A stretch of DNA of 64,000 bases from a virus (Duplodnaviria; Caudoviricetes), in the IMG/VR virus record IMGVR_UViG_3300033150_000846, positions 276 to 64,275 of that record; one strand, written 5' to 3'. Below the pieces are notes generated by a model. That model had not been told where the DNA came from. It did no database searches and saw only the letters and a program-made list of their open reading frames with translations. Position 1 is the first letter of the stretch. The number at the start of each line of letters is the position of its first letter. The position numbers and the translations under genes are program-made. Of the stretch, positions 1,784 to 52,715 are shown piece by piece.

Positions 1784-2400
1784 TGCGACTCGCCAAACTA
1801 GCATGTATCGCAACAATCTTTGCGGCCACCGGCCTGGCTTGTGAACCAACACTCAAGCCCTGCTTGGTTACCGCCAACTTCTCGACAAACCTTGAAGGTG
1901 ACCCAGATACACGCCCTTCCACGTGGGGCATGGCCAAGGCTCAGACATGGACGCTACAATTCACCCCGCTGCCAAACACCCGAGTGGAGATTCTTGAGGT
2001 CTCAGGTGACTTAGTGGCATGGCCGACTACAGGGGGCCTTGGCCCGGCAATTGTGGAGCCAGGCCGTTTTGCCGGAGTGCTGTTTGGGCTACAGACGACT
2101 GAGCCTGAAGGCTCAACCCGTGCTTTCCCAGCTTCCGACAACACTCTGGTCTACATTCAGGACGCGGTAGCCCAGGAGCCCAGACGTGCCTCTTTCGACC
2201 GTCACATCAGGCGTACTCTGCCTGCCGACAACAAAATCATCGTGAAGGTCGCAGTCTGGCTCAACGACACCGGCTACAAAATCCACATTGAACCAACATT
2301 CACCATCAAGTACCGTTTCGTCCCCGCCAACTACAAGGGGTGGGGAGAGTTTGGCAGCGGGGTTCTAGAGTTTCGACCGGCCTCGGAAAAGGAGGAATAA
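1783..2400 (+). CDS. Secreted or lipoprotein-like hypothetical protein
   Basis: MRLAKLACIATIFAATGLAC resembles a signal peptide or lipobox; beta-rich body. Confidence 0.6.
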   Translation: MRLAKLACIATIFAATGLACEPTLKPCLVTANFSTNLEGDPDTRPSTWGMAKAQTWTLQFTPLPNTRVEILEVSGDLVAWPTTGGLGPAIVEPGRFAGVLFGLQTTEPEGSTRAFPASDNTLVYIQDAVAQEPRRASFDRHIRRTLPADNKIIVKVAVWLNDTGYKIHIEPTFTIKYRFVPANYKGWGEFGSGVLEFRPASEKEE

Positions 2401-6633: not shown

Positions 6634-8089
6634 GCTGCCGCCGTGGGTAGTTTACCATAGTGCTGCATACATGGGAGGTAAGGGGCTGCTGTACGGTACC
6701 GGCCCCATATACAACAGGGAGGCTCGTACCAAACAGAACTTTGCCTTTCCGGTAGAGAACGGCGATTTTTCACTATTTGCAAATGACAGATTCGACTTTG
6801 TTTTACTGGGCAGTGTTGGTGCTGATATCACTGAGTCTGTTGTATCTGAAGCCGCCGGACACTTACGTGTAGGCGGCAACTTAATTCTTGCTCTGTCCTT
6901 CTCGGACCCTTCCTCGGCCCTCCCCCAAATCAATGAAGTTGTCTCCAAGTGTGGGTACTGGCTCAAGAAAGACCAGTTCGTCAAAGACGGCATAGTCTAC
7001 GCTATTTTTAAGCGGCTTCGGGGGCGGCTTGGGCTGAAGCAGAACCCCGCTGCCAAACTCCCTCGGGCGTGTGTGAGCCGGTTGGGGGCCATTGGGGACA
7101 TGATTATGGTCACTCCTTTGCTCAGGTGCTTGAAGGAGGACGGCTACTATGTGACCGTCAATGGCTCAACGGCGAGCATTCCGGTGCTGTTCAACAATCC
7201 CAATGTGGACAACATAGTTCCGCAGGTTCGCAACATTGTGCCTAACCGGGAGCTTGGGCAGTACTGGGCGTATTGGGCCAAGAAATACGATAAGTACGTG
7301 AATCTTTCTGAGAGTATTGAGGGGACACTGTTGAAGGTCGAGGGTAGACGAGACTTCTACACAACTAAAGAGTGGCGGCACAAGATGTGCAATGTGAACT
7401 ACTATGATGCTAGTTTGGCAGCGGGGTCATATGGGCATGTGAGGGGAAGGAACGGGGAGATTTACTTGACGGCCAAGGAGCGCAGGTTTGCTAAGCGGAT
7501 GTTGCCGGACGATACGTTTAATATTGTGGTGTCCTTGACCGGTACTAGCCATCACAAGTATAATCCTTTGCTTGGTCCTATTCTTGGGCGATACTTGAAT
7601 GAGCACCCTGAGACGAGGGTTTTCATGGTTGGGGACGAGCGAGCCAGCCGGGTGACGTTTGTGCATTCACAGGCGATTGATCTTACGGGGAAGACAACGT
7701 TGAGGGAGGTGTTTGCTCTGGTGGAGCGGGCGGATCTGGTTATTGGGCCGGAGACGGCGCTGACAAACGCGGCTGCTTGTTTTGACACGCCTGAGATTGT
7801 CTTTTTGTCTCACAGTACGCGGGAGAACTTGACGAAGTACTGGAAAAATTGCGTGGCACTGGAGCCGGAAGGGTGTCCTTGTTACCCGTGCCACCAGCTT
7901 CATTATAGTGAGGATAGTTGTCCGTTGGCCAATATTCAAGATGAGAAAGGGGAGGTGTTGGCTACCGGTCCGCTGTGTGCTATGGGAAGCGTGTCAGCCG
8001 AGAGAATAGTCAAGGCCATCGACGATTTGAGGGGTGACTGTGCTATAATGAAGAGGCATGGCACTACAATGGACGCGGAGCGAACTTAG
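6599..8089 (+). CDS. GT9 (heptosyltransferase-like) glycosyltransferase with a degenerate methyltransferase-like N-terminal domain
   Basis: RLGAIGDMIMVTPLLRCLK and DLTGKTTLREVFALVERADLVIGPETALTNAAACFDTP. The N-terminal FANDRFDFV...LRVGGNLIL resembles class I SAM methyltransferase strands. Confidence 0.85.
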   Translation: MSSPLTKKKSSRLPPWVVYHSAAYMGGKGLLYGTGPIYNREARTKQNFAFPVENGDFSLFANDRFDFVLLGSVGADITESVVSEAAGHLRVGGNLILALSFSDPSSALPQINEVVSKCGYWLKKDQFVKDGIVYAIFKRLRGRLGLKQNPAAKLPRACVSRLGAIGDMIMVTPLLRCLKEDGYYVTVNGSTASIPVLFNNPNVDNIVPQVRNIVPNRELGQYWAYWAKKYDKYVNLSESIEGTLLKVEGRRDFYTTKEWRHKMCNVNYYDASLAAGSYGHVRGRNGEIYLTAKERRFAKRMLPDDTFNIVVSLTGTSHHKYNPLLGPILGRYLNEHPETRVFMVGDERASRVTFVHSQAIDLTGKTTLREVFALVERADLVIGPETALTNAAACFDTPEIVFLSHSTRENLTKYWKNCVALEPEGCPCYPCHQLHYSEDSCPLANIQDEKGEVLATGPLCAMGSVSAERIVKAIDDLRGDCAIMKRHGTTMDAERT

Positions 8090-12600: not shown

Positions 12601-13596
12601 TTTAAGCATTACAATACGTGGTTTCATCTTCGGCCACAGCCGGACAGATGGACCAACTATGTAACAGACAAAATTTCCGGAAACGAGCAAAGATTCGAGA
12701 GGCACGAGTGTATTCTAGATCCTCTTGGGAACACTGTGTACGGGACGGCTTACGTTGATGGGACGGCAGTGAGCACGTTCACTTACACCGGCACTGGGCA
12801 AACCTCTTTTGTGAATGCGTTTCCTGCTGACACGTATGGGCGCACCAGCTATACTATTTACAATGTGGCTAGTGGCCGCTTCAAACACTACAAGACATGG
12901 GTAGAGGGTCAGCCTGAGCCGGACAGGGTGGACAAACACACGGAAATCATTACTCTGCCCACAAAATCAAACCTAAAGACTTGGCTGGCCGAGCTCAACC
13001 CCCTCAACCAAACTGTGACAGGAACAGCCTACCTGGATGGCACAGCCATAAGCACAGCAACGTTTGGCAGCGGGGTTCGTAAGGTTTTCAGTGTTGCTCT
13101 TGATTTGGATGGTTTGCACACTGTTCAGGCAGGCCATGCTGTAGAAATCAGGTATAATTGTGCTTCGGGCGTGTTTAAGCACTACAAGACTCGGCTGGAG
13201 GCTGAAGAGAAGCCCTTTGGTAAGAAACAATGGGCAATGACGTACAAGAAGGTAGGTGGGGCGACCTCCCTTGACCTTTTGCGGTATTGGCACTTGGATG
13301 CTGAAGCGGAGGGAACGGCTACTATTACCAGTGTGTGGGACGTTGATGGTACTAGTACGCACACACAGACGCACACCTTGACAGGGAGAGAGCGTCTGTC
13401 GGACATGAGCTTTCCTCCTGGAGTCAGGGCACGCATTTGTCAGGTTAGATTGTGGAGCTCGGAGAACTTTGAAGTGTACAAGAGTGAGCTCGACATTATG
13501 CGGGTTGGTGTGAAGGGCTTTAGTCGAGTGACTGTCCCTGGTACGCCGGTTGAGCAGAAAGTTTTGGTGGGTGAGGAGCGTTTGATCAATGGGTAG
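9649..13596 (+). CDS. Tail tube or stabilisation protein (tail tubular B / P22 gp10-like, extended); start may be GTG 9661
   Basis: Large beta-rich protein after the adaptors, with propeller-like segments and several C-terminal repeats (FPxETYG...FKHY..W...PEP). Confidence 0.65.
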   Translation: MELGVKREQHLVVFNKVNSRAAEHLLAEDEVATATNVDFAMGAGGARVRRGSWKRYTAGTGTVTQLYRHYDLGLGSDSRVFAISGKDLYQGYTGTFSLVQSGGLNDANGITSYGNRVYVSLTPGGSSVAVDTDGSAVPWPPGAPSGAPTIGSSTLTPLTVVSTMTVEEGTDGGATSGTSTGTTDATTLRLEFRHVPGTSDLSVNGTHTIGDYGIHGVSLKISDPAKVVKVSQDYSIGDATFTNFWHTEMDVLLEYKSLADPETLVDSLLQSDTGTAVNADQREAMVSIARDAVRVPVSHVAAAKDSWTVWKTMRPDFKLIGEGGSWSNIGAVRIVIEARDLVTVELTDFNISGAEDYPLNDANVGYAYWETWVEKDSDGNIISESAPSPVSGRVKMQYAQATATFTDTAPATPYTHRILYAQGGYMQQPYAVATVTGTATTAVHNITDVTAISRGRPLDTGVLSALYNNITVASKPFLNRIFLGHINELMWTVPGKPNTILTGNSATVSHKGDPIRAIIPWASTLVIVNRDTIYEMHGNVFEGRGQDWVLHKTAARRGSLAFNSAIETPYGIPLVGFDGLYFYIPGQGIEQSIGWITEALKDAWEGVEITDPGTLKGGRIPVINSYIFNAVTAFGDERLYLAVPTGTDQYPKTLFVIDFKSQRVWWYTYPFSIYSLFWDAINKEVIAGSSNGAILKLEGASQDTTPDGTVTPISWLVKTKKWTTPSDLVLENVQVEYEGTGVAVHAYIDGTTTMTLGTLTSAERTWDTLPFHGTVGNSLQFKFSGLRNFDGDCCVYGVSWEALVEPPRVKYYKTDYFNNGNDGEKRWIADLTKIEIPGTSTVTKVSYVDGVAKMTSTFTGPTSGQHVFVNNFPNETYGNIAYGTLTGNGEFKVWDTQMAAENEPLPVTSWKTDVTSLEENIVDAFDCDINPGGGTVYGTCFVDNTAVSTGTFTGTKRQSYTWKLPVETYGRTVYVLYSVASGGTFKHYNTWFHLRPQPDRWTNYVTDKISGNEQRFERHECILDPLGNTVYGTAYVDGTAVSTFTYTGTGQTSFVNAFPADTYGRTSYTIYNVASGRFKHYKTWVEGQPEPDRVDKHTEIITLPTKSNLKTWLAELNPLNQTVTGTAYLDGTAISTATFGSGVRKVFSVALDLDGLHTVQAGHAVEIRYNCASGVFKHYKTRLEAEEKPFGKKQWAMTYKKVGGATSLDLLRYWHLDAEAEGTATITSVWDVDGTSTHTQTHTLTGRERLSDMSFPPGVRARICQVRLWSSENFEVYKSELDIMRVGVKGFSRVTVPGTPVEQKVLVGEERLING

Positions 13597-16526: not shown

Positions 16527-16537
16527 GGAGGATAATC

Positions 16538-17536: not shown

Positions 17537-17539
17537 GAG

Positions 17540-20500
17540 ATGCCGAAGCCTGAAACCCCGCCGCCAAACTCCTCATTCATTGATGAACTGCTCAGTACAG
17601 TGAAGCAGGTTCCTACCTTCTTGGGGCAGCTCCCACCTTTTGCACCAACTGAGCCGACAGCCGCTGACAAGGAGCTTCTCTCCTACTTGTCTTATTGGAA
17701 CAATGTGGTGACTGAGAAGCCCAAGAGAATGGTCAATGAGCTTGGGAAAATCTTCTTTCACACCGGTGAGGACGCCGAGACCAAGCTCAACCGGGACGGC
17801 TCTCTGAAAGGTGAGGACATTCTTGGCAAGCCCCCGGAGACAGTGTACTTTTCTGATGATATGATTGCCGAGTTTCGGAAGAAGGGCTACGATGTCTCTG
17901 ACTTGCCGGTGGAGCCAAGGGCTTTAAGGGCTGCGTGGGAGGCGGCCAAGCATCCCATTGAAACGGGGGTTAAGGGGCTTTTGACCCCTGTGGCGGACTT
18001 TGCGGGGATGGTATGGAAGATGGCCGAGCCTGACTATGGGCCAAACGCCCCTTTGTATGAGAAGGTCTTTAAGGACCTTACCAAGGTTTACGCTTTGGCT
18101 TATGGGCTGACGTTGAAGCCTCTAGTTGACAACATTAAGGCGACCAAGGACCCGGACGATCCGTACTCTCACATTAACATTGAACAGGGGTTGTGGAAGA
18201 CCGTCGAAGACTTTCTTCCACTTCGGGAGGTGTTGGCTTTGGCGACCGGACGAAACCCGGAGACCAAGGAACTGCTCACTCCGAAGGAGTGGGGAGCCAA
18301 CCTTACAACAGGCCTACTCAAGTTTTGGATGGCGAAGGCTGGAACTGATTGGGCCAGAGGGAAATGGCGGGCCGACATTGAAGTGACACACCCGGCTCTT
18401 CTGGATATTCCTAAGTCGAGGTTCTTGGAAGAGCAGCAAGCCCTTGAATTGGAGGCCGCCAAGAAGGGTATAGCGTCTGGAAAACGTGCCGCTACAAGGG
18501 AACTGAAGAAGGCTGCTGAAAAAGGGCAAAAGACTGTTGCTGAGGCAGGGGCGACTTTGGACGAGGCAATGGACGTAATTGACCTCAAGACTCCTGTGGA
18601 CAAAGCTAAGCTGAGTCCGGAAGTTCGGAAGATCGCCGACCAGGTTGAGGATGCAGGGGCCGGTCCTTTGACAGTAGAGGACTTCGTTGATGTTTACAAG
18701 GAGCTAGGGCTTGAGCCTAGTACAATACCGGACCTTACACCAGCCCAACTCTACAAGATCTTCAATGAGCTGGGGAACAGCCTCAGTGATTTGTACAAGA
18801 CGAATCCTGACAAGTTCCAGGAGACTTTGTTCAATGTTGCGATGAAGCAAGCGAAAGCTAAGAAGCTTGCCCAGGCTGCCGGTAAACCAACTGGCCTCAC
18901 AAAGACCAACATATTTGCTGATCTTGTTCGGTCGGAGGCTCTTGGACCGAGGGCGATTGCTGATATTTTTAAGCGGAAAACTTTGGACACTGGCATGTCT
19001 CCGGAGGCGGTCGCCCGAGAAGCTCAGGCAATTGCAGCCTTGATTGAGGACAGTCTGAGTAAGAGCGGGGCTAGACTGAATGCTATTTCAAAGGCTACGC
19101 TGGAGGGGCTGGAAGAGGTTTTGGTTGGGAACCCCGAGGCTCTTGAGGCTCTTGGAGGGCTGAAAGAGGCGCTGAGCCGTAACTACAAGTACATGGGGAC
19201 TTTCCAGAAGATAAACTACTTCTACAGAAAGTTTGGCCTGAAGTGGACTCGTGGTGGAGCTACTTCCCAGCCCGCTACTGTTGCCCGTAACGTCAGTGTT
19301 CAAGGCGGGGCTTATCTTGTGGGCACATGGGAAGACTTCTTGGGTGATTTGCGAATATGGACCAAGAGCATGAAGGATGCTGTAACCCGAGGAGCAAGAC
19401 CCCTGTCTCCGTCAGAGGCTTTTCATCAAACCCTTTTTGACATCACCAATATCATTCATCAGTTACATGGGGCAAGTGTCAAGGCCTACGGTTTGGGTAA
19501 GTTCGCCCTTACCAAGATGGGCAAGAAGACAGGGGAGAACACCTATGAGTACATAGTGAAGAACCCTAAGAACTTCAAACCCCTTTACAATGTCTATGAC
19601 AAGATCATGGAGGCTCTTCCCGTAGAGGAGGCTGCCAAGCTGGAGCACACGTTCTCAATGGAGTTTGAACCAGCCAGTGTCATGACTAAGGCTTACTGGA
19701 AGAACTTCATTAAGAAAGTCACTGTCTTGAACAGAGACCCAACTTACGGCCCTATGTCCAGGCTCGCCAAGCAGGGAGCTACCATCATGGACACGATAGT
19801 GGACCTTGGTGGCATAGGAAACATGACGCAAGAACTCTTTTGGCGCAGGGCATTCTTTGTGCGGGCCGTTGAAAAATATGCACGTGAAAGGGGCTACCTT
19901 GGGGCTGAGGATTATTGGCAAGCACTGAAGGCAGGACGTACTGACTCACGCACCACCATGATTGGCGGGTTCCGCAATGCTGAAGAGGCTTTGGCTAGAC
20001 TCAAGAAGCTCAAGGAAGAAGATATTCCGCAAATGGCTGATGAGACAGTGACCAAGATGGCTCAAAGCTTCAAGAAGCGAATGAAGGACCCTTACAAGCT
20101 TGGGAACCGGATTCTCGAAGCCCGAAAAAACATAATTGATGACTTGAATAAGAAGGCGGACGAAGCCATAAGGCTGTTGGAAGCGAAAGTCAACCCGAAC
20201 GAGGCCCTTGGAGTGTTGCCCGACAGTCTTGCTAAAAGGCTTGGAGGGGAAGTTGAAACCGACATGACTGTGATTAGTAGGGCCAGACATGAAGCGCATG
20301 TGAACACGTTTGCGGCAACTCCTCCTCAACACACTTTTGCCGGGCATGTTTTGCAAGCCTACAGAACACTTCCCCTTGCAGGAGTAGGGCCTTGGTTTCC
20401 TCGCTTTCTGTCCAACTTGTACACCTGGATGAATGAGCGCAATCCTTTGGCTTACAGCCAGTTCGCCAAAACACGGATTGCACAAGAGCTGGACGCTTTT

Positions 20501-21658: not shown

Positions 21659-21909
21659 CGTTGAATGGGCGCTTACGCAACATAACAGACTCGAAGATGC
21701 TTGTAGGCATCATCATAATGCTCATTAGTGCTTGGGCATCTTGGTCTACAACCGCGATCATACGAGCTTCGGAGCAACGCGCCCAAATCAGAGAAAACGT
21801 CCAAAGGAATGCTACCACGAACGAGAGCATTCAGAAGAGTCTGGAAGACATCAAGAAGACTGTAGACACTCTTCTACAGTTAGAGTTGGAGAGAGTCAAT
21901 GCACGTTAA
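21655..21909 (+). CDS. Single-TM coiled-coil protein (holin or lysis accessory candidate)
   Basis: TM segment MLVGIIIMLISAWASW then coiled coil; ATGA overlap. Confidence 0.55.
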   Translation: MTLNGRLRNITDSKMLVGIIIMLISAWASWSTTAIIRASEQRAQIRENVQRNATTNESIQKSLEDIKKTVDTLLQLELERVNAR

Positions 21910-22426
21910 ACACCTCCTCTTGTATCCGCAGGTCATACAAGAGTGGATCACTAATATAGAGGCCAAGAAGGACAACGTAGAGGAGCCAAGCAAGAGCCCA
22001 AAGCCCCTGTTTACTGATCCGGAGGGAGAAGCTCTAATGGCCAACCTCCGCAAACTCTTCTTGGCCAGGGGAATCAAGGACATGACATCCCAGGAAGTTT
22101 TCTCTCTCCAGCCCTCTAGAGAAAAGATGTCAATGGAGGAGATGTTTGGCAGCGGGGTCATCCTCGACAAAGTTCGGGGGAAGATTCAGCGGTCTTTCAG
22201 CAACGACGAAATTCGGGCTGGAATCTCCAGGGCTGTGGGTAGCAAAGCTTTGCGAAGAGACCTGTACACGGTTCTGCCGAAAGCAAAAGGAAAGCTTCCG
22301 GAGCGGTTTCCGGACAGAACCAATCTTGGGGCATTGCGTGACGGAGCCGAGAGGGTTTTGGACTATCTTGTGGCCTCGAAAAAAGTGAGAAAAAAGTCGC
22401 CCAGGCCCTTGACAAACTTCCCCTAG
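21899..22426 (+). CDS. Hypothetical basic protein
   Basis: Co-directional ORF that contains a motif copy and ends inside the sRNA promoter. Confidence 0.55.
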   Translation: MHVKHLLLYPQVIQEWITNIEAKKDNVEEPSKSPKPLFTDPEGEALMANLRKLFLARGIKDMTSQEVFSLQPSREKMSMEEMFGSGVILDKVRGKIQRSFSNDEIRAGISRAVGSKALRRDLYTVLPKAKGKLPERFPDRTNLGALRDGAERVLDYLVASKKVRKKSPRPLTNFP

Positions 22427-22437
22427 TGTAGTATACT
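22409..22437 (+). promoter_or_regulatory. Near-consensus sigma70 promoter
   Basis: TTGACA(22409)-17 bp-TATACT(22432); predicted +1 at about 22444. Confidence 0.85.
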
Positions 22438-22443
22438 GAAAAT

Positions 22444-22504
22444 AACCCCGCTGCCAAACACAGAGTGGTTGGGATGTAGAACCGGCATCCCAGCCACTCT
22501 TTTT
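22444..22504 (+). ncRNA. Predicted ~60-nt small RNA: 5' single-stranded motif, 15-bp hairpin and U tail
   Basis: AACCCCGCTGCCAAACAC, then AGAGTGGTTGGGATG(22462-76)/CATCCCAGCCACTCT(22486-500), then TTTT. Confidence 0.7.
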
Positions 22505-22522
22505 GTATTGGGGCCGTTTACT

Positions 22523-23041
22523 ATGAGAACCAAAGTGATGGTAGGAGCCATTGCCTGTTGCCTGGCAGTGAGGCAAGGAGCAGAGGTGGCTATACCGAAG
22601 AAACTTGAGAGAGAAATGGTTAGTCCGAACCGAGACCTCAGTATTGAAGAGCAGGCACCCTTGGTACTTTTGCCTATGACTGTGTGGGGAGAGGCAAGAG
22701 GGGAGCCGTTCCTTTCCAAGATCTGTGTTGCTCATGTCATTGTGAACAGGAGCAAGAAGCGCCGTATGTCGATCAAGGAGGTGGTGCTTCAGCCGAAGCA
22801 GTTCTCGGTATTTAACCTGAATGATCCTAACAGGGACAAGCTGCTGTTGGCGGATTCCTTGGAAGGTGAAGAGGTTTGGGGAGAGTGCGTGGCGGCTTCG
22901 TGGGTTGCCCTGGTAAGCCGGGAGTATGATCCGACTAACGGGGCAACCCACTACTACTCAGGGAAGCGGCGGCCCAAGTGGGCAAAGAGAATGAGAGAAA
23001 CCCTTACTCTTGGGCGTCTTCACTTTTTGCGTCCTGGGTAA
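22523..23041 (+). CDS. SleB/Hydrolase_2-family cell wall hydrolase (endolysin) with N-terminal hydrophobic anchor
   Basis: TVWGEARGE, VAHVIVNR, PKQFS, DPTNGATHYY and HFLR motifs. Confidence 0.9.
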   Translation: MRTKVMVGAIACCLAVRQGAEVAIPKKLEREMVSPNRDLSIEEQAPLVLLPMTVWGEARGEPFLSKICVAHVIVNRSKKRRMSIKEVVLQPKQFSVFNLNDPNRDKLLLADSLEGEEVWGECVAASWVALVSREYDPTNGATHYYSGKRRPKWAKRMRETLTLGRLHFLRPG

Positions 23042-23255
23042 GGTAGAGGCCGTCGTTTCTGATGGTTGTCGGCTTTCCTTTGCTGACTAAGTGGCAGAAG
23101 TCAGCGAATCCCTCCTTTAGAGTGTTGAGCTTGGCTTCCAGAAGCGTAATGGAAATCAAGTACTTCTGAAAGATCTTCTCCTCTAGCTTGGACATTTCAA
23201 TTTTGACGGGAGGCGGAGCCTCTCGGGCTGTGGGGGATTTACTTTTTTGTGACAT
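23004..23255 (-). CDS. Hypothetical protein
   Basis: AGGAG SD before MSQK; last gene of the leftward arm. Confidence 0.5.
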   Translation of the reverse strand: MSQKSKSPTAREAPPPVKIEMSKLEEKIFQKYLISITLLEAKLNTLKEGFADFCHLVSKGKPTTIRNDGLYLTQDAKSEDAQE

Positions 23256-23559
23256 GGTGATTCTCCTGCTGGTCGGTGCCGTACATTTCATTGAAGATAT
23301 ATTCGGGTAGAGATGGGCCGTGAGTTTTCATGTGCTGGAGGCGGTCGTATCGAGCTTTCCATCTCTTTAGGTTCTTTATTATGTGGGCTTCGACAGTGGG
23401 TACGTCGAAGAAGATTGGCTTTCCTCTTGTGCCCTTTGTTCTTGGTATTGGGCGTGGGTTGTATCCTTTGTGACAGTTTTGGTACATTGTGGCCTTTGAT
23501 ATTCCCAGCACGCGAGTCACTTCCTCTAAAGTCAAAACGGTTCTTTTGGTTTGCTCCAT
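23239..23559 (-). CDS. AlpA/excisionase-like helix-turn-helix protein
   Basis: VLTLEEVTRVLGISKATMY. Confidence 0.75.
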   Translation of the reverse strand: MEQTKRTVLTLEEVTRVLGISKATMYQNCHKGYNPRPIPRTKGTRGKPIFFDVPTVEAHIIKNLKRWKARYDRLQHMKTHGPSLPEYIFNEMYGTDQQENHHVTKK

Positions 23560-23572
23560 GTCTTTGTTCCTC

Positions 23573-24127: not shown

Positions 24128-24140
24128 AGTGTTACCGCCT

Positions 24141-24977
24141 TTATTGGCATTCAATTCCTTTTTCGTTGAAGGCAAACGATAGTTGCTTGCTTGGAGGCAG
24201 TTCGTCAGTTGGGCAGAGCTCGACATTGGAGGTTTGAGACACCTCAGGAGCAGCAGTACTGAGTACTACGGGAGCACTTCCTGCACTGCTTGGAGTTTGG
24301 CAGCGGGGTTCAAAGCTGAGGACGATGGGGAGGATTTTGTTGGCAGTGTCTGCTGAGGTTTCGGTTCGTGGATCGGTAGTAACTGTGAAGTCACAGTAGT
24401 AGGGGTGAAGAGAGTTTTCGGAAGGGTGGCGGGCTTGCTTTCCGGTAAGGAAACGAACTGGAGCAGGATTGTGTACCCAAAAGATGCTGCCGTTGTGACG
24501 GCGGATTGCCTCAACTTCGTTGGGGAAGCGGACATCGTCAATGAGGATGAACCGATTCTTAACAGGGGGTAGGAAGAGTCGGCTTTTTGTGAAGAAGGCA
24601 GTTACCCAGTAGTTTGGGTCTTGGGCTCGGCGGTAAGAGGTGCCCCACCATTGAAGAAGCCAACGGACAAGAGGGGCAGGAGGCTTGATGTAGAGTAGCT
24701 CCGTTATGTCTTTCTTTCTCAAGGTGAGGTAGTACTGACCAATGGCGGCGGCTATGGTTTTAGCTTTGAGAGATGGAGGAGAGTTAAGGGGTCTTCCGAA
24801 GTAGAGGTCTCTTAGCTCGTCACGGACGGCGTCGGCAAAGCTACGAACACAAGTCGAGGTTTGTGGGCGCTCCTTTAGGCGACGGGCTAAAGCATGGGCA
24901 ATGGAGGTTTTACCGGCTCCGGCTTTACCTGCAAAGCCAACAAGGATTGGAGGCTTTTGTAAGGAGTTAGGTTGCAT
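24141..24977 (-). CDS. Deoxynucleoside monophosphate kinase
   Basis: GFAGKAGAGKT, SFADAVR, LLQWWGT, IDDVRFPNE and HPSE motifs. Confidence 0.85.
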   Translation of the reverse strand: MQPNSLQKPPILVGFAGKAGAGKTSIAHALARRLKERPQTSTCVRSFADAVRDELRDLYFGRPLNSPPSLKAKTIAAAIGQYYLTLRKKDITELLYIKPPAPLVRWLLQWWGTSYRRAQDPNYWVTAFFTKSRLFLPPVKNRFILIDDVRFPNEVEAIRRHNGSIFWVHNPAPVRFLTGKQARHPSENSLHPYYCDFTVTTDPRTETSADTANKILPIVLSFEPRCQTPSSAGSAPVVLSTAAPEVSQTSNVELCPTDELPPSKQLSFAFNEKGIECQ

Positions 24978-25694: not shown

Positions 25695-25861
25695 ATTTTA
25701 GAGGCTGCGACTGGTCCGAAGCGGTTCAGCCATTGTAAAAGGTTTTTGAATGGCTGCCCAATGAAGACTCTCCATACTGGAGGAGCAGCTATGATTTTGT
25801 GGTTGCTGTCGATGTCTACTTGTCCGGTCATCTTTGAGCAAGAGATGTAAAGTTTTTTCAT
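25691..25861 (-). CDS. 56-aa hypothetical protein, not in the ORF track
   Basis: MKKLYISCSKMTGQVDIDSNHKIIAAPPVWRVFIGQPF...; fills the gap with an ATGA overlap. Confidence 0.55.
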   Translation of the reverse strand: MKKLYISCSKMTGQVDIDSNHKIIAAPPVWRVFIGQPFKNLLQWLNRFGPVAASKI

Positions 25862-25863
25862 TG

Positions 25864-28352: not shown

Positions 28353-31091
28353 TTACATTCTTATAGTGTGGATGGTTTGGCAGTCTCCCCATGACCGGCC
28401 CTTCCCGCTGTAGCCTACTTCTACTCCCAGCCTGAAGCCTTCAAGTTCACGCCAAGGTTGTGTAGCTACCGCAATGAGAGCTTTTGCTGCTTCTTCATGG
28501 GATTCGTCCGGACCTTGTACAACCAGCTCATCGTGGACTTGGATGCTAAGGTACCAGCCTTCTGGCAAGACTGCCGTTGTTGCTAAACGTAGTTGTTCAA
28601 TTTCTTCTGAAAAACGCTCGGGGTGGAGAGCAATCATTATTCTGAGGACTATGTCTGCGAGGGAGGAGGCAGGCAAGAAAGCCAGCGCCTTGTTTTCCAT
28701 GCGGGCCATGTTGAACCATCGTTTGCGGCCAAACGGGTTGACTAGGAAACCTTGTCTTTGGGCAAGTTTGATGGTTCGTTCTTGCCAAGCAGCAGTCTCG
28801 GGGTTGAGTTCAGTTGACCAAATGTGAATCATCCTCTTTACATCTTGGGCGGTTATCGAGGTGTAGCCTTCGTTGTGGATATACTCAAGGGTCTTCTTCC
28901 ACTTGAGGCCGTAGTTCCTACCGTGGTTCACGATTTTGCCTAGTTTGTACAGGTGAGAGTTCTCTCCGTGTTTGCGGACAGGAACACCAAAGGCCCGAGT
29001 AGCAATGTCTTCATGTTCGTTGTAGCCAGGAGTGTGGAGGCGCTTGAGCCTGTCTGTGTCGTTAGCTAGAAAGGCGGTCAGCATGTTCTCCCCCTGGATT
29101 ATGTCCGCCGTGATGAAACTGAAGGATGGGTCATCGGGGACGAACAATTTGCGAATTTCTTTTGGTTGGTTTTGGATGTTGGGGTCTATGCCTCGACGTT
29201 GGCCGGAACAAGAGAGACGGCCTTCACTCGTGCCATGGACCTTGAGGGAGAAAAAGACTCTGTCTACTTCTGTAAGGCCGTTCTTTGCAAATGTGTTGAG
29301 GAGAGTAGCCGTCTTCTTGATTTGGTCGAGGATGATGAATTCAGGGGCTTTGGTAGCCCAAAGTGTCCTGGCCGACTTGTCGGTTGCTATCTTGCCCGAA
29401 GGTGTAAGCTTCGCTTTCAGCCCTTTTGCCTCAATGTACTTGCGCAACTCAACCGGGCTATTCCAAGGACGTACAACTTTCTCAACATCTTCTGTAATGA
29501 GAGTTGCCTTCTTCATGACCCCAGGCTCTATCATCCGTCCACAGACTGGGCAGGGTTTGGCAGCGGGGTTCAAAAATGTGATTGGAGTGGGGTCATGGGC
29601 AGTTTTGTCTTTGACGAAGCCTTTACAGATTTTTGTTTTGGCTTTCCAGGGAGCCCGGTCTTCAGGGATGCGCGTGAACTTCTTGTGTTTTTCTGTGTAG
29701 GGGCGGAGTTCGGGAGGGAGCTTGGCTTCCAGGGAGGCAATTTGGTTTGTGTACTCTTCCCTGATTTTGACGAGGGCGGTCTTGTCTATTTTGAGGCCCC
29801 TGTTGTTCATGTCTCGGCATATAAAGGCTGCCGGTATCGACACGTTTGTGTAGACGTGGCGCATGTTGTAGTGGTCTAAGAGGGTTTGGAGAGGTTTTGA
29901 AATTTGAAGGGAAGCGTCAGTGTCTCTGGCGTTGTAGAGAGCAAAGGCTTCTTGGGTAGAGGTACAGCCGCCGTAGCCGCCCAGTTCTCTTGGGATTGCG
30001 CTGGGTTGGTTCCAAGTTTTGTGTTGGGAAGAGAAGACGATGTTTCCTTTTTCGTCTTTGTGGGAAGAGGAGCCGCCCTTCCAAGCTACCTTGTTTGTAA
30101 ATACACTGGCGACGAAAGCGAGAGAGTGGGGGAAGTCGGGCTGAACTAAATGCTGGATGAGCATTGTGTCGATGTACTTGGCTTTTACGTCCCATCCTAG
30201 TGCGTTGAAGTAGAGACTGTCAGCCCCGACTATGTTGTGGCCGATGAGAGCTTCTGCGTTTTCGAATATGCGTTTTAGTTCTTGGATGTAGGGCTCGACG
30301 AAGGGGACTACAATGGCAGTGTAAGGTTTGGCGGACAAACCGCAGAGGGTTATTTCGCCTGTGTTGGGGTCCCACTCAAAGTCGAAAGCGAACTTTTTGG
30401 GAGAGAAATTCTTTACTTCTTCTATGGTTGGGGCAAGGTTGTAGTTCTCTGGGGGAACTGCTGGGTACCTTCTGAAGTCTACCGTGGCACACACCGAGAA
30501 AAGTTTAGAGTCACGAGCATGAGCGGCGGGGTGAATGGTAGGGATTACTAGGGGCTTGGAGGAGTGTAAAGAGCCACAGTCCAGGGGAAGAGGGGAACCT
30601 CTCCAAGTGTGAATGCCTTCTCGCTTTGTTAGGGCTTTCAGGGCTTTGTTGCCTAAAGCAATTATGCGTTGCCATTTTTGGGTCTTGAGGTATGGGAGCA
30701 GGTGATGGTTTCGGCAATACTTTAGAGCCGCGTAGGCATCTTCCTTGGGTGTGAAGGTCCAGTCAGGATCACCGGGAAAAATGTTCTTTGGCGGGCGGCA
30801 CCCAATTACGTTAATGATATGGAAGATAGATCTGTCTAGGCCTGCATTTCGTAGAAGGGAGTTTAACCAGCGGCCTGCCCCTCCAACAAAAGGTTGCCCA
30901 GCATAAACTTCGTCTTCACCGGCAGCTTCACCTACTAAGAGCTCTGGCCTAGTTCCTTTGTGGGGTGGGATGTAGCCTAGTGTGACGTGGGCTATTGGGC
31001 ACTTTGCACAGAAGGAAGGCCTGTTCTTGTTTAGTTCGCTTCTTACTGAGGGGTCGAAGAAGGGGGCTAGCGCCTTGTCAACTTTTGGCAT
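28353..31091 (-). CDS. polA: Family A DNA polymerase with N-terminal family-4 uracil-DNA glycosylase-like domain and 3'-5' exonuclease
   Basis: UDG: CAKCP, GEAAGEDE..GQPFVG.AG, CRPP.N, HPA. Exonuclease: FDFE, GHN..D, YNARD. Polymerase: GRLS, NIQNQP, TADIIQGE, KIVNHGRNYG, QVHDEL. Confidence 0.93.
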   Translation of the reverse strand: MPKVDKALAPFFDPSVRSELNKNRPSFCAKCPIAHVTLGYIPPHKGTRPELLVGEAAGEDEVYAGQPFVGGAGRWLNSLLRNAGLDRSIFHIINVIGCRPPKNIFPGDPDWTFTPKEDAYAALKYCRNHHLLPYLKTQKWQRIIALGNKALKALTKREGIHTWRGSPLPLDCGSLHSSKPLVIPTIHPAAHARDSKLFSVCATVDFRRYPAVPPENYNLAPTIEEVKNFSPKKFAFDFEWDPNTGEITLCGLSAKPYTAIVVPFVEPYIQELKRIFENAEALIGHNIVGADSLYFNALGWDVKAKYIDTMLIQHLVQPDFPHSLAFVASVFTNKVAWKGGSSSHKDEKGNIVFSSQHKTWNQPSAIPRELGGYGGCTSTQEAFALYNARDTDASLQISKPLQTLLDHYNMRHVYTNVSIPAAFICRDMNNRGLKIDKTALVKIREEYTNQIASLEAKLPPELRPYTEKHKKFTRIPEDRAPWKAKTKICKGFVKDKTAHDPTPITFLNPAAKPCPVCGRMIEPGVMKKATLITEDVEKVVRPWNSPVELRKYIEAKGLKAKLTPSGKIATDKSARTLWATKAPEFIILDQIKKTATLLNTFAKNGLTEVDRVFFSLKVHGTSEGRLSCSGQRRGIDPNIQNQPKEIRKLFVPDDPSFSFITADIIQGENMLTAFLANDTDRLKRLHTPGYNEHEDIATRAFGVPVRKHGENSHLYKLGKIVNHGRNYGLKWKKTLEYIHNEGYTSITAQDVKRMIHIWSTELNPETAAWQERTIKLAQRQGFLVNPFGRKRWFNMARMENKALAFLPASSLADIVLRIMIALHPERFSEEIEQLRLATTAVLPEGWYLSIQVHDELVVQGPDESHEEAAKALIAVATQPWRELEGFRLGVEVGYSGKGRSWGDCQTIHTIRM

Positions 31092-34896: not shown

Positions 34897-35913
34897 CTAG
34901 GAGAGTCCCATGTAGGCAGTTGGGTCAACTGTAACGAATTCAGGGTGTGAAGACGGAATAACAGCATCCTGAGTATTGTGAAGCTCAAAGTACTGGCAAG
35001 TCTGTCTCCACGTAGAGCAGTTGGGCCGCCATGGTGGAACACTCCTAATACCCTCTTTCATCATTGTCATCATTGTGTCGGCTACCTTGATAATTTCCGG
35101 TAGAGATTGGTTGAGGAGTCTCTCTTGGGTCCTGGTGACTGCGAACCTGTAGAAGTTGCACTTGGGGGCGGACTTTGGTTCTTTTACTGGAGCAAAGTCT
35201 TGTTCATGTCCACACAATTGGCACTTGTACTTGCCCTTCTGAGTAATTGTGTAAGCGTCGAAAGGCTGAATAACCCTGCAATTTTTGCAGGTTCGCTTTG
35301 GTTTGTGAATGTTGGGCTTTTCAAGAACATTCACCAGCAATCCTTGGATAGGCCCGATCTTGTGACTAAGGGCTAGGAGTTGAAAGTCAGCTTGCATGTT
35401 CGACTGCCACCCCTTCATGTAAAGGGGCATTGGGACATAACTGGATTTTGTCTTGTGCTCTTTGATCCACCATCCTTTAGTGAGAAGTGTCGTATCGCCC
35501 TGCCAACCCGTAGGCATTTCCACGTCTTCCTCCACATAGAAGTACCTATCAACCTTAGCAAGCAACGCTAAGTCCTTGGTAATAGGCCGGATAACCGGCT
35601 CCTCCACAGAGAATTGTTTGGCAGCGGGGTCATTAGTGTAGTTGCTGGTATACTGGTCTAACAGAAGGTGTGCCATAAACAGGGCATCCTTAGTTGGATC
35701 AAACTCCTTTATGACCTCTTCGCTTATCTCGTAATTGCCGGTAGCATAGAAATTTTCTAGCCCACTGTGGACTAAGGCTCCTATGCATAAAGGGTCGTCT
35801 CGCTGGCCAAGATGTCTCCGTACACGTTTGGTAACATAGTTCTCGTACCAGTGCCACGGACATATCCCGGTAAACTGGTAGTATTGTGAGTGGTCAATAA
35901 TGAACTGGGTCAT
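34897..35913 (-). CDS. PD-(D/E)XK nuclease (Cas4/RecB-like) with zinc-ribbon insertion
   Basis: CP..W, G.LVH, KVD, EHKT and Q motifs; C-terminal C..C; CKNC/CQLC insertion. Confidence 0.8.
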   Translation of the reverse strand: MTQFIIDHSQYYQFTGICPWHWYENYVTKRVRRHLGQRDDPLCIGALVHSGLENFYATGNYEISEEVIKEFDPTKDALFMAHLLLDQYTSNYTNDPAAKQFSVEEPVIRPITKDLALLAKVDRYFYVEEDVEMPTGWQGDTTLLTKGWWIKEHKTKSSYVPMPLYMKGWQSNMQADFQLLALSHKIGPIQGLLVNVLEKPNIHKPKRTCKNCRVIQPFDAYTITQKGKYKCQLCGHEQDFAPVKEPKSAPKCNFYRFAVTRTQERLLNQSLPEIIKVADTMMTMMKEGIRSVPPWRPNCSTWRQTCQYFELHNTQDAVIPSSHPEFVTVDPTAYMGLS

Positions 35914-37921: not shown

Positions 37922-38936
37922 TTGCTTTCTCCTTTTTCGTTTTTCCTTCAGTGTTCTCTTGCATGATGACTGCAAGGAGAGCACCGTTCAACAACTCGAT
38001 GCATTCAGGGCAGAGAACATCAGTGTTGCCCTTTGTGGGCTTGTGGCACCTAATGCACTGTGTTACGGTTTTGGAAACCCCGCTGCCAAACAGCTGAGCT
38101 ATAGGGGGATTGACTGGGGAGGCGTAGGGACCTCTGTAGTAGCGCTGGTAAGGAAGTTCGTAAGAATCGTCGTCTTGAAAAGTGTGGATTGCGGAAGCTG
38201 CTCGTTTCCAAATTCCTCGTTCGCCAAAAGGGAGGTCAGCGATGGGAACCAAGTTTTGTGTGTCAGCGTCGAGGTCCACCGCATAAAGAACTTTAGGATC
38301 GATTGTGTAAATGCTGGGCTCTTCTTCTCCGGTTGCAAACCTGTAGGCTGTGGTCAATGCTTCCATGGTTGAGGCGTAAGCTGTGCCGCCTTCTGGAAGA
38401 TCGACAAAGTACAAAGCCTCGTGGTTGAAGCGGAAGAAAATCATGTAAGGCTTTGGGGTGGTTACGAGGGCGGCACAGGAGCCCCAGCCTCGAATTTCCC
38501 CAACGTCCTTTTTGAGTAGGAGGTAGTCCCATATGATTTGGGAGTCCACTTCGTACTTCAGGGAGCTTTTTGTGAGGAGTTCTTTGAAGTTGGAGATGAC
38601 GCCGTTGTGAGTACCGGCGACCTTCACGAAACTGCCGTCCTCTTCTTTGCGACCAAAGAGGAAGGGGTGAGCGTTTTCTTTTGTTACATCACCGTGAGAG
38701 GCTGCCCTAGTGTGGGCGATGAAGGGGGATTTTGCTTTTGCAGGTTTGCTCAGCAGCTTCTTGGTGAAGAAGGCGGAGCTTATTCTGCCTACGTCCTTCT
38801 GGATTTTGATGCCGTCTTTGTCGAAGTAGGCCAGCCCGTAGCTGTCAGTTCCACGGGCTTCCATAGCATTGGCGAGGAACGGGGCCATAATGGCTGCTTG
38901 TTTGTTGAATTCAGTGAATCCGAAAATTCCACACAT
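37890..38936 (-). CDS. Class II (Ntn) glutamine amidotransferase
   Basis: MCGIFG start, RGTDSYG, HTRAASHG, NAHPF, HNGVISN and VDS motifs. Confidence 0.92.
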   Translation of the reverse strand: MCGIFGFTEFNKQAAIMAPFLANAMEARGTDSYGLAYFDKDGIKIQKDVGRISSAFFTKKLLSKPAKAKSPFIAHTRAASHGDVTKENAHPFLFGRKEEDGSFVKVAGTHNGVISNFKELLTKSSLKYEVDSQIIWDYLLLKKDVGEIRGWGSCAALVTTPKPYMIFFRFNHEALYFVDLPEGGTAYASTMEALTTAYRFATGEEEPSIYTIDPKVLYAVDLDADTQNLVPIADLPFGERGIWKRAASAIHTFQDDDSYELPYQRYYRGPYASPVNPPIAQLFGSGVSKTVTQCIRCHKPTKGNTDVLCPECIELLNGALLAVIMQENTEGKTKKEKANERAVYTAGN

Positions 38937-40691: not shown

Positions 40692-41452
40692 TTTTCCTCG
40701 TTGATTCTGGTTTCAAGAAACTCGGCTGTCTCTTCGCCTAGAGATTGAAGGCTTTCGCTTGGGTTTTGTAGGAGTAGTGTTTGGAGGAAGCGCCGCCTTG
40801 TGTGAGGAGACTTCAGGGCGAAAGCGGAGTTGACCTCCAAGACAATGAACTCTCCTGAAGGAAGTTGTAGAATGTCTACAGCTCCAAAGTCATAACCGAG
40901 GGCGTCTACAGCTTTTCGAGCAAGAGGGCGGATTCCTTTGGGAGGCTTCTCAGTGAAGGAAATTACCCATCCTAGCCGCCTTGAGCGGATGTTTGGCAGC
41001 GGGGTTTCCTCTAGGGAGACTTTTTTGCCGACAGCGAAAGTTCGGGCTTTTGGAAGGTAAGAAGAGCTTGCACAGAAGACTCTCCACTCAGCGGTTACTT
41101 CGCTGATCCAGGCTGTCCAATAGTCGGCAGTAAGCCACTTTTCTGAGATAGTGCGTGGTGGTGTTGGGAAGTAGATGAAGCGGCCTTGTGAATGGTTGTT
41201 ACGGCGACCTACTACTAGTTGACCTTCGCAAAGGCCTTGTGTTGCTTCCTGTAGTGTAGTGTAGAAAGTTGGAACGGGAATTTCGTGGTCTTTGAGAAGG
41301 GAAAGTTGGTTGAGGCCGTAGAGTTTTGGTTGACCTCCTATGGAGTTGGGGCGTTCTATGCCCCAAGCGAGGTCTTGGTCTGAGGGGATTGGGGCTAGGG
41401 TGTTTCGTAGCCAACGTACAGTTGGCCACTTCGAGTTGCCGTAGACTTTCAT
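40688..41452 (-). CDS. ATP-grasp (RimK-like) ligase
   Basis: EWRV, ALGYDFGAVDI and VLEVNSA motifs. Confidence 0.88.
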   Translation of the reverse strand: MKVYGNSKWPTVRWLRNTLAPIPSDQDLAWGIERPNSIGGQPKLYGLNQLSLLKDHEIPVPTFYTTLQEATQGLCEGQLVVGRRNNHSQGRFIYFPTPPRTISEKWLTADYWTAWISEVTAEWRVFCASSSYLPKARTFAVGKKVSLEETPLPNIRSRRLGWVISFTEKPPKGIRPLARKAVDALGYDFGAVDILQLPSGEFIVLEVNSAFALKSPHTRRRFLQTLLLQNPSESLQSLGEETAEFLETRINEEN

Positions 41453-49580: not shown

Positions 49581-49689
49581 CGATAAGAAAAAGGTTGGGG
49601 GCGGGCAATCAAAGCGCGTCTGTTTAGGGGCAGGAGGGGCGTTATACCCGCTTTCGCCCCATCCCTACCTTTCCAAACCTTCCCCCGCT

Positions 49690-50239
49690 GCCAAACCCTT
49701 TATTTTCACCAACTTAAGGGGGGCTCCCCCTCCCAAAGCCCCCAACCATGTAAAATTTACATAGTCAGCCAAAAAATCCAAAAAAGATTTTCACCCCTCT
49801 ACCTGGCTCTAACAGTCCAATTGTTAGAGCCAGGTGAGCTGCCCCTAACCCCTTTGTTTTCAACAACTTACATTTTACCTGGCTCTAACAAAAATCGGCC
49901 CAAAATGGCCTAACCCCTTCATTTTCAACAACTTCCCCCGATTACCTGGCTCTAACAATCGCCTCTACGCAAACGAACAAAAACAAAACTCCCTCCTTAT
50001 ACGCGAAAGCATTTTTTCTTTTTATATAAATACAATACTATACACCACTATATTTTTAAGCCCATATTTGGGTAAACCCCATTGTTAGAGCCAGGTCGGC
50101 CCAAAAAATCGCCCTAACTCCTTTCCCTTCAACAACTTACACCACTTCAGGCCCAAAAAATTGTTAGAGCCAGGTACTTGCAAACTCTTCATTCTAAAGG
50201 ACTTACAAAATCACTGTTAGAGCCAGGTTAGAGCCAGGT
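49690..50239. repeat. Putative origin or packaging region: inverted 14-bp repeats and IHF-like sites around an AT-rich core
   Basis: ACCTGGCTCTAACA at 49801, 49877 and 49944; reverse complement at 49822, 50083, 50162, 50215 and (13 bp) 50227; interleaved TTCAACAACTT elements. Confidence 0.8.
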
Positions 50240-50246
50240 CCGGCCC

Positions 50247-50275
50247 TTGACTTCGCCCCTTCCCTATGCTATACT
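50247..50275 (+). promoter_or_regulatory. Sigma70-type promoter giving a leaderless mRNA
   Basis: TTGACT-17 bp-TATACT with TG extension; ATG 50282 falls at the predicted +1. Confidence 0.8.
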
Positions 50276-52380: not shown

Positions 52381-52715
52381 ACAAAGTGTGGGGATGCGAG
52401 CAAATCGTCATAAACCGCGACTTTTGCTTCAAGATCATGTACGTGTTGCCCCATGCCCGCTCTTCAATTCACAAGCACGCAAAGAAGGACGAGCTCTTCT
52501 ACGTCCTGAAAGGCCCAATACTCTTCGAGGTCGGCAAAAACATTCGCCGTCGTCGCGAAATTGTGGCCCACGAAGGAACAATCATTCACGTTCCCCCGAA
52601 CACCTGGCACCGATTTACTAACTTTGGCAGCGGGGTTACACAATTTTTAGAAGCTTCTACACACGATGATCCAAACGACTCAAGACGAGCAACGAAGAGT
52701 ACTCGCAATTTCTGA
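52338..52715 (+). CDS. Cupin (sugar isomerase-like)
   Basis: KVWGCE, SIHKHAKKDELFYVLKG, PPNTWHRF and EASTHDD motifs. Confidence 0.85.
   Translation: MGKYTPQPEEAKLVNKVWGCEQIVINRDFCFKIMYVLPHARSSIHKHAKKDELFYVLKGPILFEVGKNIRRRREIVAHEGTIIHVPPNTWHRFTNFGSGVTQFLEASTHDDPNDSRRATKSTRNF

Follow-up and report, generated by a model that had tools for sequence, protein, structure and literature searches.

In the virus genome recorded as IMGVR_UViG_3300033150_000846 (Duplodnaviria; Caudoviricetes), the 96-nt spacer between an open reading frame (ORF) at 21899-22426 and the ATG of the endolysin gene at 22523 is filled by a compact unit made of a promoter, a short predicted RNA and a hairpin followed by a run of T. 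The predicted RNA carries at its 5' end one copy of a 15-bp word, ACCCCGCTGCCAAAC, that is dispersed over the same genome. The stretch of DNA that was analysed, called the window below, has 64,000 nucleotides and corresponds to bases 276-64275 of the 64,275-bp IMG/VR record. Positions are those of the window, and + and - designate its two strands. A preliminary description of this DNA, made from its letters and a list of ORFs, had proposed that the short RNA base-pairs with the dispersed copies of the word and acts as a guide or primer on the DNA of the phage itself.

The promoter-hairpin unit in front of the endolysin gene

The promoter of the unit is of the sigma-70 type and reads GGCCCTTGACA-N17-TATACT (22404..22437, +), its -35 region overlapping the last codons of ORF 21899-22426. 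The hexamers TTGACA (22409-22414) and TATACT (22432-22437) are separated by a 17-nt spacer and agree with the consensus at 11 of 12 positions. Hexamers alone are little proof, because three of the four sites reaching 11/12 in the whole window lie within ORFs. An extended pattern of 16 specified bases, GGCCCTTGAC-N18-TATACT, has two perfect matches in the window, at 22404 and 50242, and the next best site has three mismatches. TATACT was also found as the -10 element of promoter-like sites at 6151 and 12827. The promoter of the unit is probably real.

The second perfect match (50242..50275, +) is a paralogous promoter that heads the rightward operon, and the A of ATG 50282 lies 7 nt past its -10 element. 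The same 7-nt rule leads in the unit to A22444 (+), the base that precedes the 15-mer, and a transcription start at this position is a reasonable inference. It coincides with the start at about 22444 that the preliminary description had placed behind a near-consensus promoter. The predicted transcript reads AACCCCGCUGCCAAACAC and then enters the hairpin, the bases that follow A22444 being AACCCCGCTGCCAAACAC. The copy of the 15-mer found here is exact (22445..22459, +). It would occupy +2 to +16 of the transcript and takes up the room between start and hairpin.

The hairpin (22462-22500) and the T run behind it form a predicted intrinsic terminator (22462..22505, +), which was the strongest terminator-like site in all four scans. 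It has a 7-nt loop and 16 base pairs as counted by the folding tool, among them eight G-C pairs and, by eye, two G-U pairs, one of which closes the helix; TTTTTGTATT lies directly 3' of it. A stem of 15 bp with one wobble pair, followed by a U tract, had been described previously; the stem and the T run stand, and the tool adds one pair to the 15. The RNA from 22444 to 22506 folds with -29.9 kcal/mol (z = -5.3), a value that was reached by none of 200 shuffled sequences. In the minimum-energy fold the first 11 nucleotides are free, and nucleotides 12-15 are engaged in a weak pairing with the U tail. The claim that the RNA of about 60 nt contains no ORF was borne out, the only + strand ORF at this place being a TTG-extended form of the lysin frame.

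With its own promoter and terminator and without coding capacity, the unit has in silico the architecture of a trans-acting small RNA, and it looks like a real transcription unit. The distance from the terminator to the lysin ATG is 22 nt and contains no promoter. In this arrangement neither the promoter of the unit nor the 36-kb operon upstream of it is expected to reach the lysin gene except by read-through.

A dispersed and strongly selected 15-mer

The occurrence of the word at 15 further sites was confirmed. When up to two mismatches were allowed, 16 copies were found, 13 exact and three with one mismatch, against an expectation of 0.19, and none of 100 shuffled sequences reached this number. 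No further copies appear in the full 64,275-bp record, in which six are forward and ten reverse, and the reversed pattern used as a control has none. Fourteen copies lie inside ORFs and two are intergenic, which is about the share expected by chance. The even split between sense and antisense that had been reported for the genic copies was also found, with seven in each orientation.

Among the sense copies, three are on the + strand. Two of them are exact and lie in ORF 1783-2400 (1963..1977) and ORF 6599-8089 (7044..7058); the third, with T>C at position 8, covers codons 6-10 of ORF 17540-21658 (17555..17569). The four others are exact and on the - strand, in ORF 24141-24977, which is deoxynucleoside monophosphate (dNMP) kinase-like (24295..24309), in the DNA polymerase gene (29555..29569), in an exonuclease gene (35616..35630) and in ORF 40688-41452 (40991..41005). 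The antisense copies are on the - strand in the same ORFs 1783-2400 (2349..2363) and 6599-8089 (7413..7427), in ORF 9649-13596 (13062..13076), in ORF 21899-22426 (22144..22158), in ORF 52338-52715 (52622..52636, with C>G at position 15) and in the tail-spike gene (57696..57710), and on the + strand in the amidotransferase gene 37890-39044 (38077..38091); all except 52622 are exact. Three pairs are close: copy 2349 converges on copy 1963 at 386 bp, copy 7413 converges on copy 7044 at 369 bp, and copy 22144 diverges from copy 22445 at 301 bp. The third variant, with A>C at position 1, is intergenic (49682..49696, +), about 120 bp to the left of a cluster of a second repeated word, and this variant is also kept in a fragment of another strain (G002).

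A precedes the word in 11 of the 16 copies, the count given in the preliminary description, and the T>C change at 17555 is indeed the sole internal one among the three variants. Behind the word, T or A (seven and six copies) is found at +16, C at +17 in nine copies and C at +18 in eight, and the flanks are otherwise unconserved. Conservation sets in at -1 and has practically vanished past +15. A weak W-C-C preference persists at +16 to +18, and the copy in the RNA, which has A-C-A there, agrees with it only in part. The mismatch spectrum is two-peaked, with 13 sites at zero mismatches, three at one and none at two; from three mismatches upward the counts are at chance (1, 18 and 108 observed against 2.0, 18.2 and 110.1 expected in 20 Markov simulations). 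The information content is about 27 bits, compared with 13 needed to specify 16 sites in this genome and about 19 if a host genome of 5 Mb had to be avoided.

The copies are fairly evenly spaced. When the three close pairs are merged, a step taken post hoc, the 13 resulting loci have gaps with a coefficient of variation of 0.41 (P = 0.0008). Over the full set of 16 the gaps reach at most 8.7 kb (P = 0.035), and the presence of three gaps below 500 bp is not unusual (P = 0.25).

Selection on the word was assessed in five contigs of strains that are 93-97% identical, which gave 13 site-by-contig comparisons at nine sites, the contigs being partly non-independent. None of the 195 motif bases is changed in these strains, compared with 200 of 3826 flanking bases (5.2%; P ~3e-5). 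The genic copies use five of the six reading frames, three sense and two antisense. Since the word occurs in five frames and in both orientations, it is selected as DNA and not as a peptide or as one sense of an mRNA, and a peptide-coding origin was rejected on the same grounds. In homologues from ten relatives, available for eight of the 14 genic sites, the copies fall in poorly conserved stretches of the proteins. An origin by insertion, for instance of a miniature inverted-repeat transposable element (MITE), was also rejected, as the homologues align through these eight sites without a consistent gap of five codons. In the same way, a reading as promoters of a phage RNA polymerase or of sigma-54 was discarded because the flanks are not conserved and half of the copies are antisense inside genes.

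Outside this species the 15-mer occurs at the level of chance. In IMG/VR it was found at 61 loci; nine of them (12 matches) are on the five same-species contigs, and the 52 others have one match each, as expected by chance. No word occurs more than four times at k = 14 or more than eight times at k = 10 in the ten relatives, against 14-15 times in the window (14 at k = 14). A search of 185,579 species genomes gave at least 120 matches, each of those listed being a single one in a different record, and three species genomes that were checked whole contain one or two exact copies each. Of these three, a metagenome-assembled genome (MAG) of Nodosilinea has two exact copies, both in chromosomal genes without phage homology. 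Among 401 cyanobacterial genomes, four have one copy and none has more, which is not above chance. The idea of a host genome word found no support, as the matches listed from the bacterial genomes were at chance level. Repeated on contigs of the same species and at chance level among the other matches listed, the 15-mer belongs to the phage lineage. It is a real, strongly selected and lineage-specific DNA element.

One further observation concerns a single site. Two strain contigs from different samples (L071 and L075) both stop at 52635, a point 2 nt inside copy 52622-52636 that lies 30 nt upstream of a terminase-like gene, and the same contigs run through six other copies. The sequence on the other side of this end was found on no IMG/VR contig. 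The ends could reflect a polymorphism that starts at the edge of the motif, a physical end of the DNA or an accident of assembly.

Related candidate control sites, neighbouring genes and the phage family

The paralogous promoter at 50242 is accompanied by another repeated word. The 14-mer ACCTGGCTCTAACA has eight copies in 49801-50239, seven exact and one with one mismatch (expected 0.53); one more site, at 50382 beyond the cluster, matches with two mismatches. Four copies are found to the left of an AT-rich stretch (~49990-50060), mostly on the + strand, and four to its right on the - strand; two copies lie directly upstream of the -35 element of the paralogous promoter. The cluster is situated between two divergent gene blocks and looks like a set of origin iterons and/or operators. 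One promoter core thus occurs with two different repeated words, decorated as operators are. In the same region, 49801-50239, a 38-nt module (…TTTTCAACAACTT…) is repeated three times, and to the left of the cluster a non-coding stretch (49380-49560) is dense in short CCTAGC/GCCTAG-like repeats.

Other parts of the genome also seem to use terminators as checkpoints. At 6049-6150 lies a second unit of promoter, short RNA and terminator, which has the promoter TTGACT-17-TATAGT (10/12) and an RNA of 60 nt with two hairpins (-36.9 kcal/mol) that ends in GGCCCGAAAGGGCC and TTTT; it contains no copy of the 15-mer. Its terminator is followed by a second promoter, TTGACA-17-TATACT, and by ATG 6190, and the region 6049-6190 is almost unchanged in a strain contig that is 97% identical. 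On the other strand, a 13-bp terminator lies right after the first leftward gene (48329-48357, -), and two leftward promoter-like sites, CCCCTTGACA-N17-TACCCT, were noticed by eye upstream, within 48953-49353. Together they suggest that the leftward genes are under checkpoint control too.

The gene behind the unit (22523..23041, +) encodes a cell-wall hydrolase that matches the PHROG endolysin family (1.3e-16) and Pfam Hydrolase_2 (2.2e-14); its translation, read by eye, has a hydrophobic stretch at the N-terminus. The gene in front of it, the last ORF of the rightward operon (21899..22426, +), carries copy 22144, ends inside the promoter and encodes P0122, a basic protein of 175 aa. P0122 matched no family in PHROGs, Pfam or NCBIfam, no sequence in the PDB and no entry of the Atlas, and its structure model is unusable (pLDDT, the predicted local distance difference test, 38.6). 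Upstream of it, 21628-21909 encodes a 93-aa protein with one hydrophobic segment. P0125, a protein of 106 aa encoded 0.8 kb away on the opposite strand, has an N-terminal helix-turn-helix (HTH) that scores 21 bits with HTH_17, below the cut-off of 27 bits. Its neighbours in the Atlas belong to HTH/DNA-binding and Cox-like clusters, which are leads only, and no PDB sequence matched it.

The record is rated 100% complete. Its two ends share an identical 275 bp, a repeat that is read as the overlap of a circular assembly because the repeated end is coding-looking DNA. The rightward genes run from about 50282 past the end of the record to 23041, and the leftward genes from about 48979 to 23004. 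Between 71 and 73 ORFs were scanned against PHROGs and Pfam, and 34 against NCBIfam. PHROGs and Pfam matches include, for structure and lysis, a portal, terminase-like pieces, an adaptor, a tail spike and the endolysin, and for replication a family A DNA polymerase, a primase-helicase, a Sak4-like annealing protein and exonucleases. An RNA ligase, a dNMP kinase and a cluster of amidoligase, amidotransferase and COOH-NH2 ligase genes were also matched. The PHROGs and Pfam scans of the window ORFs revealed no gene for an RNA polymerase, an integrase or a partition protein.

In 50,697 records of cultured phages, the portal matched only 12 phages, all of them podophages infecting filamentous cyanobacteria, with some 20-24% identity, and window 21600-23100 had no DNA match in cultured phages. 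The phage belongs with a large uncultured family of 60-75 kb genomes whose portals are 43-51% identical to its own. Ten such relatives were compared, whole or as far as their contigs reach, six of them being rated 100% complete. For 39 of 73 ORFs none of the ten has a match; among these are the entire block at 23-27 kb, the lysin and P0122, the last two being absent from all ten. Closer relatives are known from proteins: P0002 (portal 73%, on a 35-kb ENA contig) and P0127, on a 19.7-kb JGI contig, which provides the single homologue of P0122 (94%). A search of viral contigs with P0122 gave no match, a search of metagenome contigs with the lysin gave one at 37%, and ORF 51273 found matches of only 27-28% in viral contigs. 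A single run was listed for this DNA and none of RNA; this run, a DNA run in the form of contigs, contains a relative at 90-99% in 27 of 30 bins of 12000-31999, with no bearing on 22404-22505. HIP1 was counted zero times in the window and is of no help on the host.

Several other features of the genome were observed. A LAGLIDADG homing-endonuclease-like ORF (4294-4845), absent from the ten relatives, lies between ORFs 3936-4226 and 4846-5526, which match adjacent DNA in eight relatives at 58-66% identity; ORF 4846-5526 matches a major-head-protein family, and the arrangement at 3936-5526 resembles a capsid gene interrupted by an intron or intein. Matches to the terminase large subunit fall on two ORFs (52666-53640 and 54538-55407) with a cytidylyltransferase-like ORF and an orphan ORF between them, and the two terminase-like ORFs and the cytidylyltransferase-like one keep the same order in relatives. 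Two early ORFs on the - strand (46104-46625 and 46849-47259) reach or slightly exceed the cut-off for Pfam Cas_VVA1548, a family of putative CRISPR-associated proteins, and may represent a counter-measure of the phage to a CRISPR system. The cluster at 37890-43740 (-) comprises a class-II amidotransferase, an amidoligase, an ATP-grasp-like protein and a phiEco32-type COOH-NH2 ligase; it is kept in 8-10 of the ten relatives, and three motif-free orphan ORFs are interleaved with it. A region that first looked non-coding (36170-37080, -) contains four similar small ORFs in tandem, of about 70-80 codons, with the repeat 'LEKILDL…AEAEVE'. Finally, a tRNA-Thr gene (anticodon TGT) at 61361-61458 is preceded by the extended -10-like sequence TGGTATAAT.

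Possible roles of the 15-mer in lysis control and along the genome

The reading favoured here, tentatively, is that of a promoter-proximal termination checkpoint for the lysin gene, in which the copy of the 15-mer at the promoter is a DNA operator for a factor that reads the other 15 copies too, and the RNA of about 60 nt is a terminated leader. In this scheme 22404-22505 would be a self-contained unit for the host RNA polymerase, with its promoter, a start at A22444 and a strong intrinsic terminator, situated between the last gene of the ~36-kb rightward operon and the promoterless endolysin gene. Transcripts from the unit promoter and from the upstream operon would mostly stop at the hairpin, leaving the leader RNA of about 60 nt, and lysin would be made only by read-through. 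The 15-mer would be a double-stranded DNA site read by a putative sequence-specific factor of the phage lineage, and this factor, when bound at +2 to +16, would act on the polymerase right after initiation, by blocking or modifying it. The other 15 copies would serve the same factor in either orientation, as stoperator-like roadblocks or as loading or architectural sites. The expression of lysin would in this way be tied to the occupancy of these sites.

The checkpoint part of this scheme is consistent with the 11/12 promoter, whose sole perfect paralogue heads the rightward operon, and with a hairpin that is the strongest terminator-like site of the four scans and folds far better than shuffled sequences. 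Its layout is a familiar one. In phage lambda, pR'-qut-tR' likewise brings together a promoter, a short terminated RNA, a terminator and the lysis genes. The PalpB-tB/AlpA system of Pseudomonas aeruginosa also has a strong promoter, a close terminator, lysis genes and a short terminated RNA, and there a DNA element of the promoter is read by a small phage-type regulator, as far as the excerpted text of PMC9371919 goes. The Q and AlpA cassettes nevertheless differ from the present unit. They need a -10-like sigma-dependent pause element according to the same excerpt, and none is present in 22444-22461; their own element lies between -35 and -10, whereas the 15-mer lies at +2 to +16; and they have nothing like 15 further intragenic copies. 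The HTH protein encoded nearby, with 106 aa and its HTH at the N-terminus, is a further difference from AlpA and Q.

Several points argue for a site that is read as DNA. Conservation fades gradually at the edges of the motif without following the sequence of the RNA, and a small HTH_17/Cox-like DNA-binding protein, a possible reader of an operator, is encoded 0.8 kb away. The copy at the promoter is more likely to be a DNA control site than part of a guide RNA. Dispersed operators are known in phages. Those of C1 in phage P1 are asymmetric and number about a dozen per genome. In cluster A mycobacteriophages, the stoperators of L5 gp71 resemble the present word in being asymmetric sites of 13-17 bp, dispersed, with one on a key promoter and a monomeric repressor as their reader; there are more than 20 of them per genome (PMC9283540, in excerpt). 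The same excerpt places the L5 sites in promoters and short intergenic spaces and reports that they are oriented with transcription and that reversal abolishes their function, in contrast with the 14 of 16 copies inside ORFs and the 7:7 orientation found here. Compared with those of L5 and P1, moreover, the present sites are more uniform, and no repressor homologue, integrase or partition gene was seen in the PHROGs and Pfam scans.

Other observations weigh against the operator and its checkpoint. The operator explains nothing about the 14 copies in ORFs, so that a second role has to be assumed for them. With 27 bits, 13 perfect copies out of 16 and none at two mismatches, the motif is stricter than expected of a repressor site. 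No binding protein was recognised, P0125 being below the Pfam cut-off and the model of P0122 unusable. No Q or AlpA family match was obtained in the PHROGs, Pfam and NCBIfam scans, in which orphan ORFs remain, and no TAnnnT-like pause element was seen by eye behind the start. Finally, the motif coincides exactly with the unpaired 5' tail of the RNA, as the guide-RNA hypothesis predicts, and an operator would allow this without requiring it.

A rival that has some chance of being right, although it is rather unlikely, separates the two components of the locus. The 15-mer would have its own genome-wide function on DNA, in nicking or cleavage, replication, packaging or condensation, and the unit would be an ordinary attenuator or insulator of lysin, copy 22445 occupying the only unconstrained 18 nt of the 96-nt spacer. 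The chance-like share of intergenic copies, the motif-free unit at 6049-6150, the even spacing and the indifference to orientation all agree with such a coincidence. Dispersed words of 9-19 bp that are non-palindromic, present in 4-14 copies and mostly intragenic are nick sites in T5, phiKMV-like and tf/LUZ24-like phages, as described in the accessible part of PMC3517423. In that part of the source, however, the nick words are all on one strand and no link to an RNA is known, as opposed to six + and ten - copies here and a word known from sequence alone. The stop of the two strain contigs within copy 52622-52636 would be compatible with an end or break of the DNA at the motif, but the same contigs pass six other copies unbroken. 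Another objection comes from the placement of copy 22445, exactly at +2 to +16 on the transcribed sense strand. By our own estimate, a random set of 16 sites would have one that fills the 18-nt gap, on the correct strand, with a probability of about 5e-4, and this rises to a few percent if two copies are free to lie in about 4 kb of non-coding DNA.

The preliminary proposal appears improbable. It makes the ~60-nt RNA act in trans as a guide, as a primer or as an R-loop anchor, its 5' 16 nt pairing with the 15 sites, probably with the help of a protein partner. Such an RNA would mark, nick, prime or loop the phage's own chromosome at intervals of about 5 kb, and its partner might be among the 39 lineage-specific ORFs. 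The motif is the 5' tail of the RNA, unpaired over its first 11 nt and weakly paired over nt 12-15, and the A at -1 in 11 of 16 copies is the one of the RNA. The excess of information (27 bits against the 13-19 needed) and the sharply bimodal mismatch spectrum, which has no degenerate copies, are also in line with base pairing. Furthermore, the three variants are all terminal or compatible with a G-U pair; nine of the 45 possible single changes qualify, which gives (0.2)^3 = 0.008; the figure is post hoc, and edge positions are loose for proteins too. The 7:7 orientation argues for DNA over mRNA as the target. Like the unit, trans-acting small RNAs, the vrRNA of VIPR and CRISPR RNAs combine a dedicated promoter with an unpaired segment for recognition and a terminator hairpin, and VIPR is an instance of phage-encoded RNA-guided DNA binding (bioRxiv 2026.10.15.759431, in the portion available). 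Unlike in these systems, the targets here would be in the phage's own DNA and in both orientations, there are no GGY/NN units, and the scaffold would be a single hairpin of 39 nt.

The protein partner and the chemistry of the pairing are less favourable to a guide. In favour of a guide, an Rnl2-type RNA ligase gene adjoins the polymerase gene and has a match in only one of ten relatives. None of the scanned ORFs matched a Cas, TnpB, IscB, Argonaute or reverse-transcriptase family, 39 of 73 ORFs being orphans. There are no VIPR-type GGYNN arrays in the window, and Rfam at gathering scores returned one tRNA only, with weak miRNA-like hairpin matches near the unit that score far below. For priming, the 3' hairpin would have to be removed. 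The RNA is C-rich (8 C, 2 G), and C-rich RNA forms the weakest class of RNA:DNA hybrids, which counts against this proposal. So do the T/A-C-C preference of the sites at +16 to +18, where the RNA has A-C-A, and the operator-like decoration of the paralogous promoter with a different DNA word.

An action at the level of RNA seems more improbable still. A small RNA made of a seed and a terminator would pair with seven mRNAs (ORFs 1783, 6599, 9649, 21899, 37890, 52338 and 57500) or compete with the same-sense copies. Trans-acting small RNAs classically consist of a single-stranded 5' seed with a Rho-independent terminator behind it, as here, and six of the seven antisense copies are in the rightward (structural) operon. 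On the contrary, half of the genic copies are oriented so that their mRNA could not pair, the same-sense ones are equally selected, and all seven complementary copies lie deep inside ORFs, away from ribosome-binding sites. A perfect match of 15 nt, moreover, far exceeds what trans-acting small RNAs need. Very improbable, finally, is a decoy RNA that mimics one strand of the sites and titrates a factor binding the single-stranded motif at forks or transcription bubbles: the RNA shares the sense of the motif strand and shows the motif unpaired, and recognition is very strict, but the idea is purely inferential and has no candidate factor.

Another class of genome words deserves comparison. DNA uptake sequences and Chi sites are strict short words that occur in both orientations, in variable parts of genes and every few kb, as the 15-mer does. 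The 15-mer differs from them in showing no enrichment in bacterial genomes among the matches listed, and 15 bp is much longer than any Chi site known to us. Neither stoperators nor nick words nor uptake and Chi words fit it fully, and no known class of phage genome words does. As judged from a keyword search of the literature, the unit itself is ordinary, and the dispersed word and its tie to the control region of lysin seem to be a new variation.

The copy of the 15-mer in the control region of the lysis enzyme offers a direct experimental handle on the dispersed word. If a guide RNA were the true explanation, RNA-guided DNA recognition would be put to a new use here, as a recognition of self and not of an enemy, in which copies in variable stretches of essential genes are kept identical by base pairing. 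If, under the favoured reading, the word is the site of a protein, a genome-wide DNA-binding system would be coupled to the timing of lysis in a lytic-looking and otherwise unstudied family of podoviruses.

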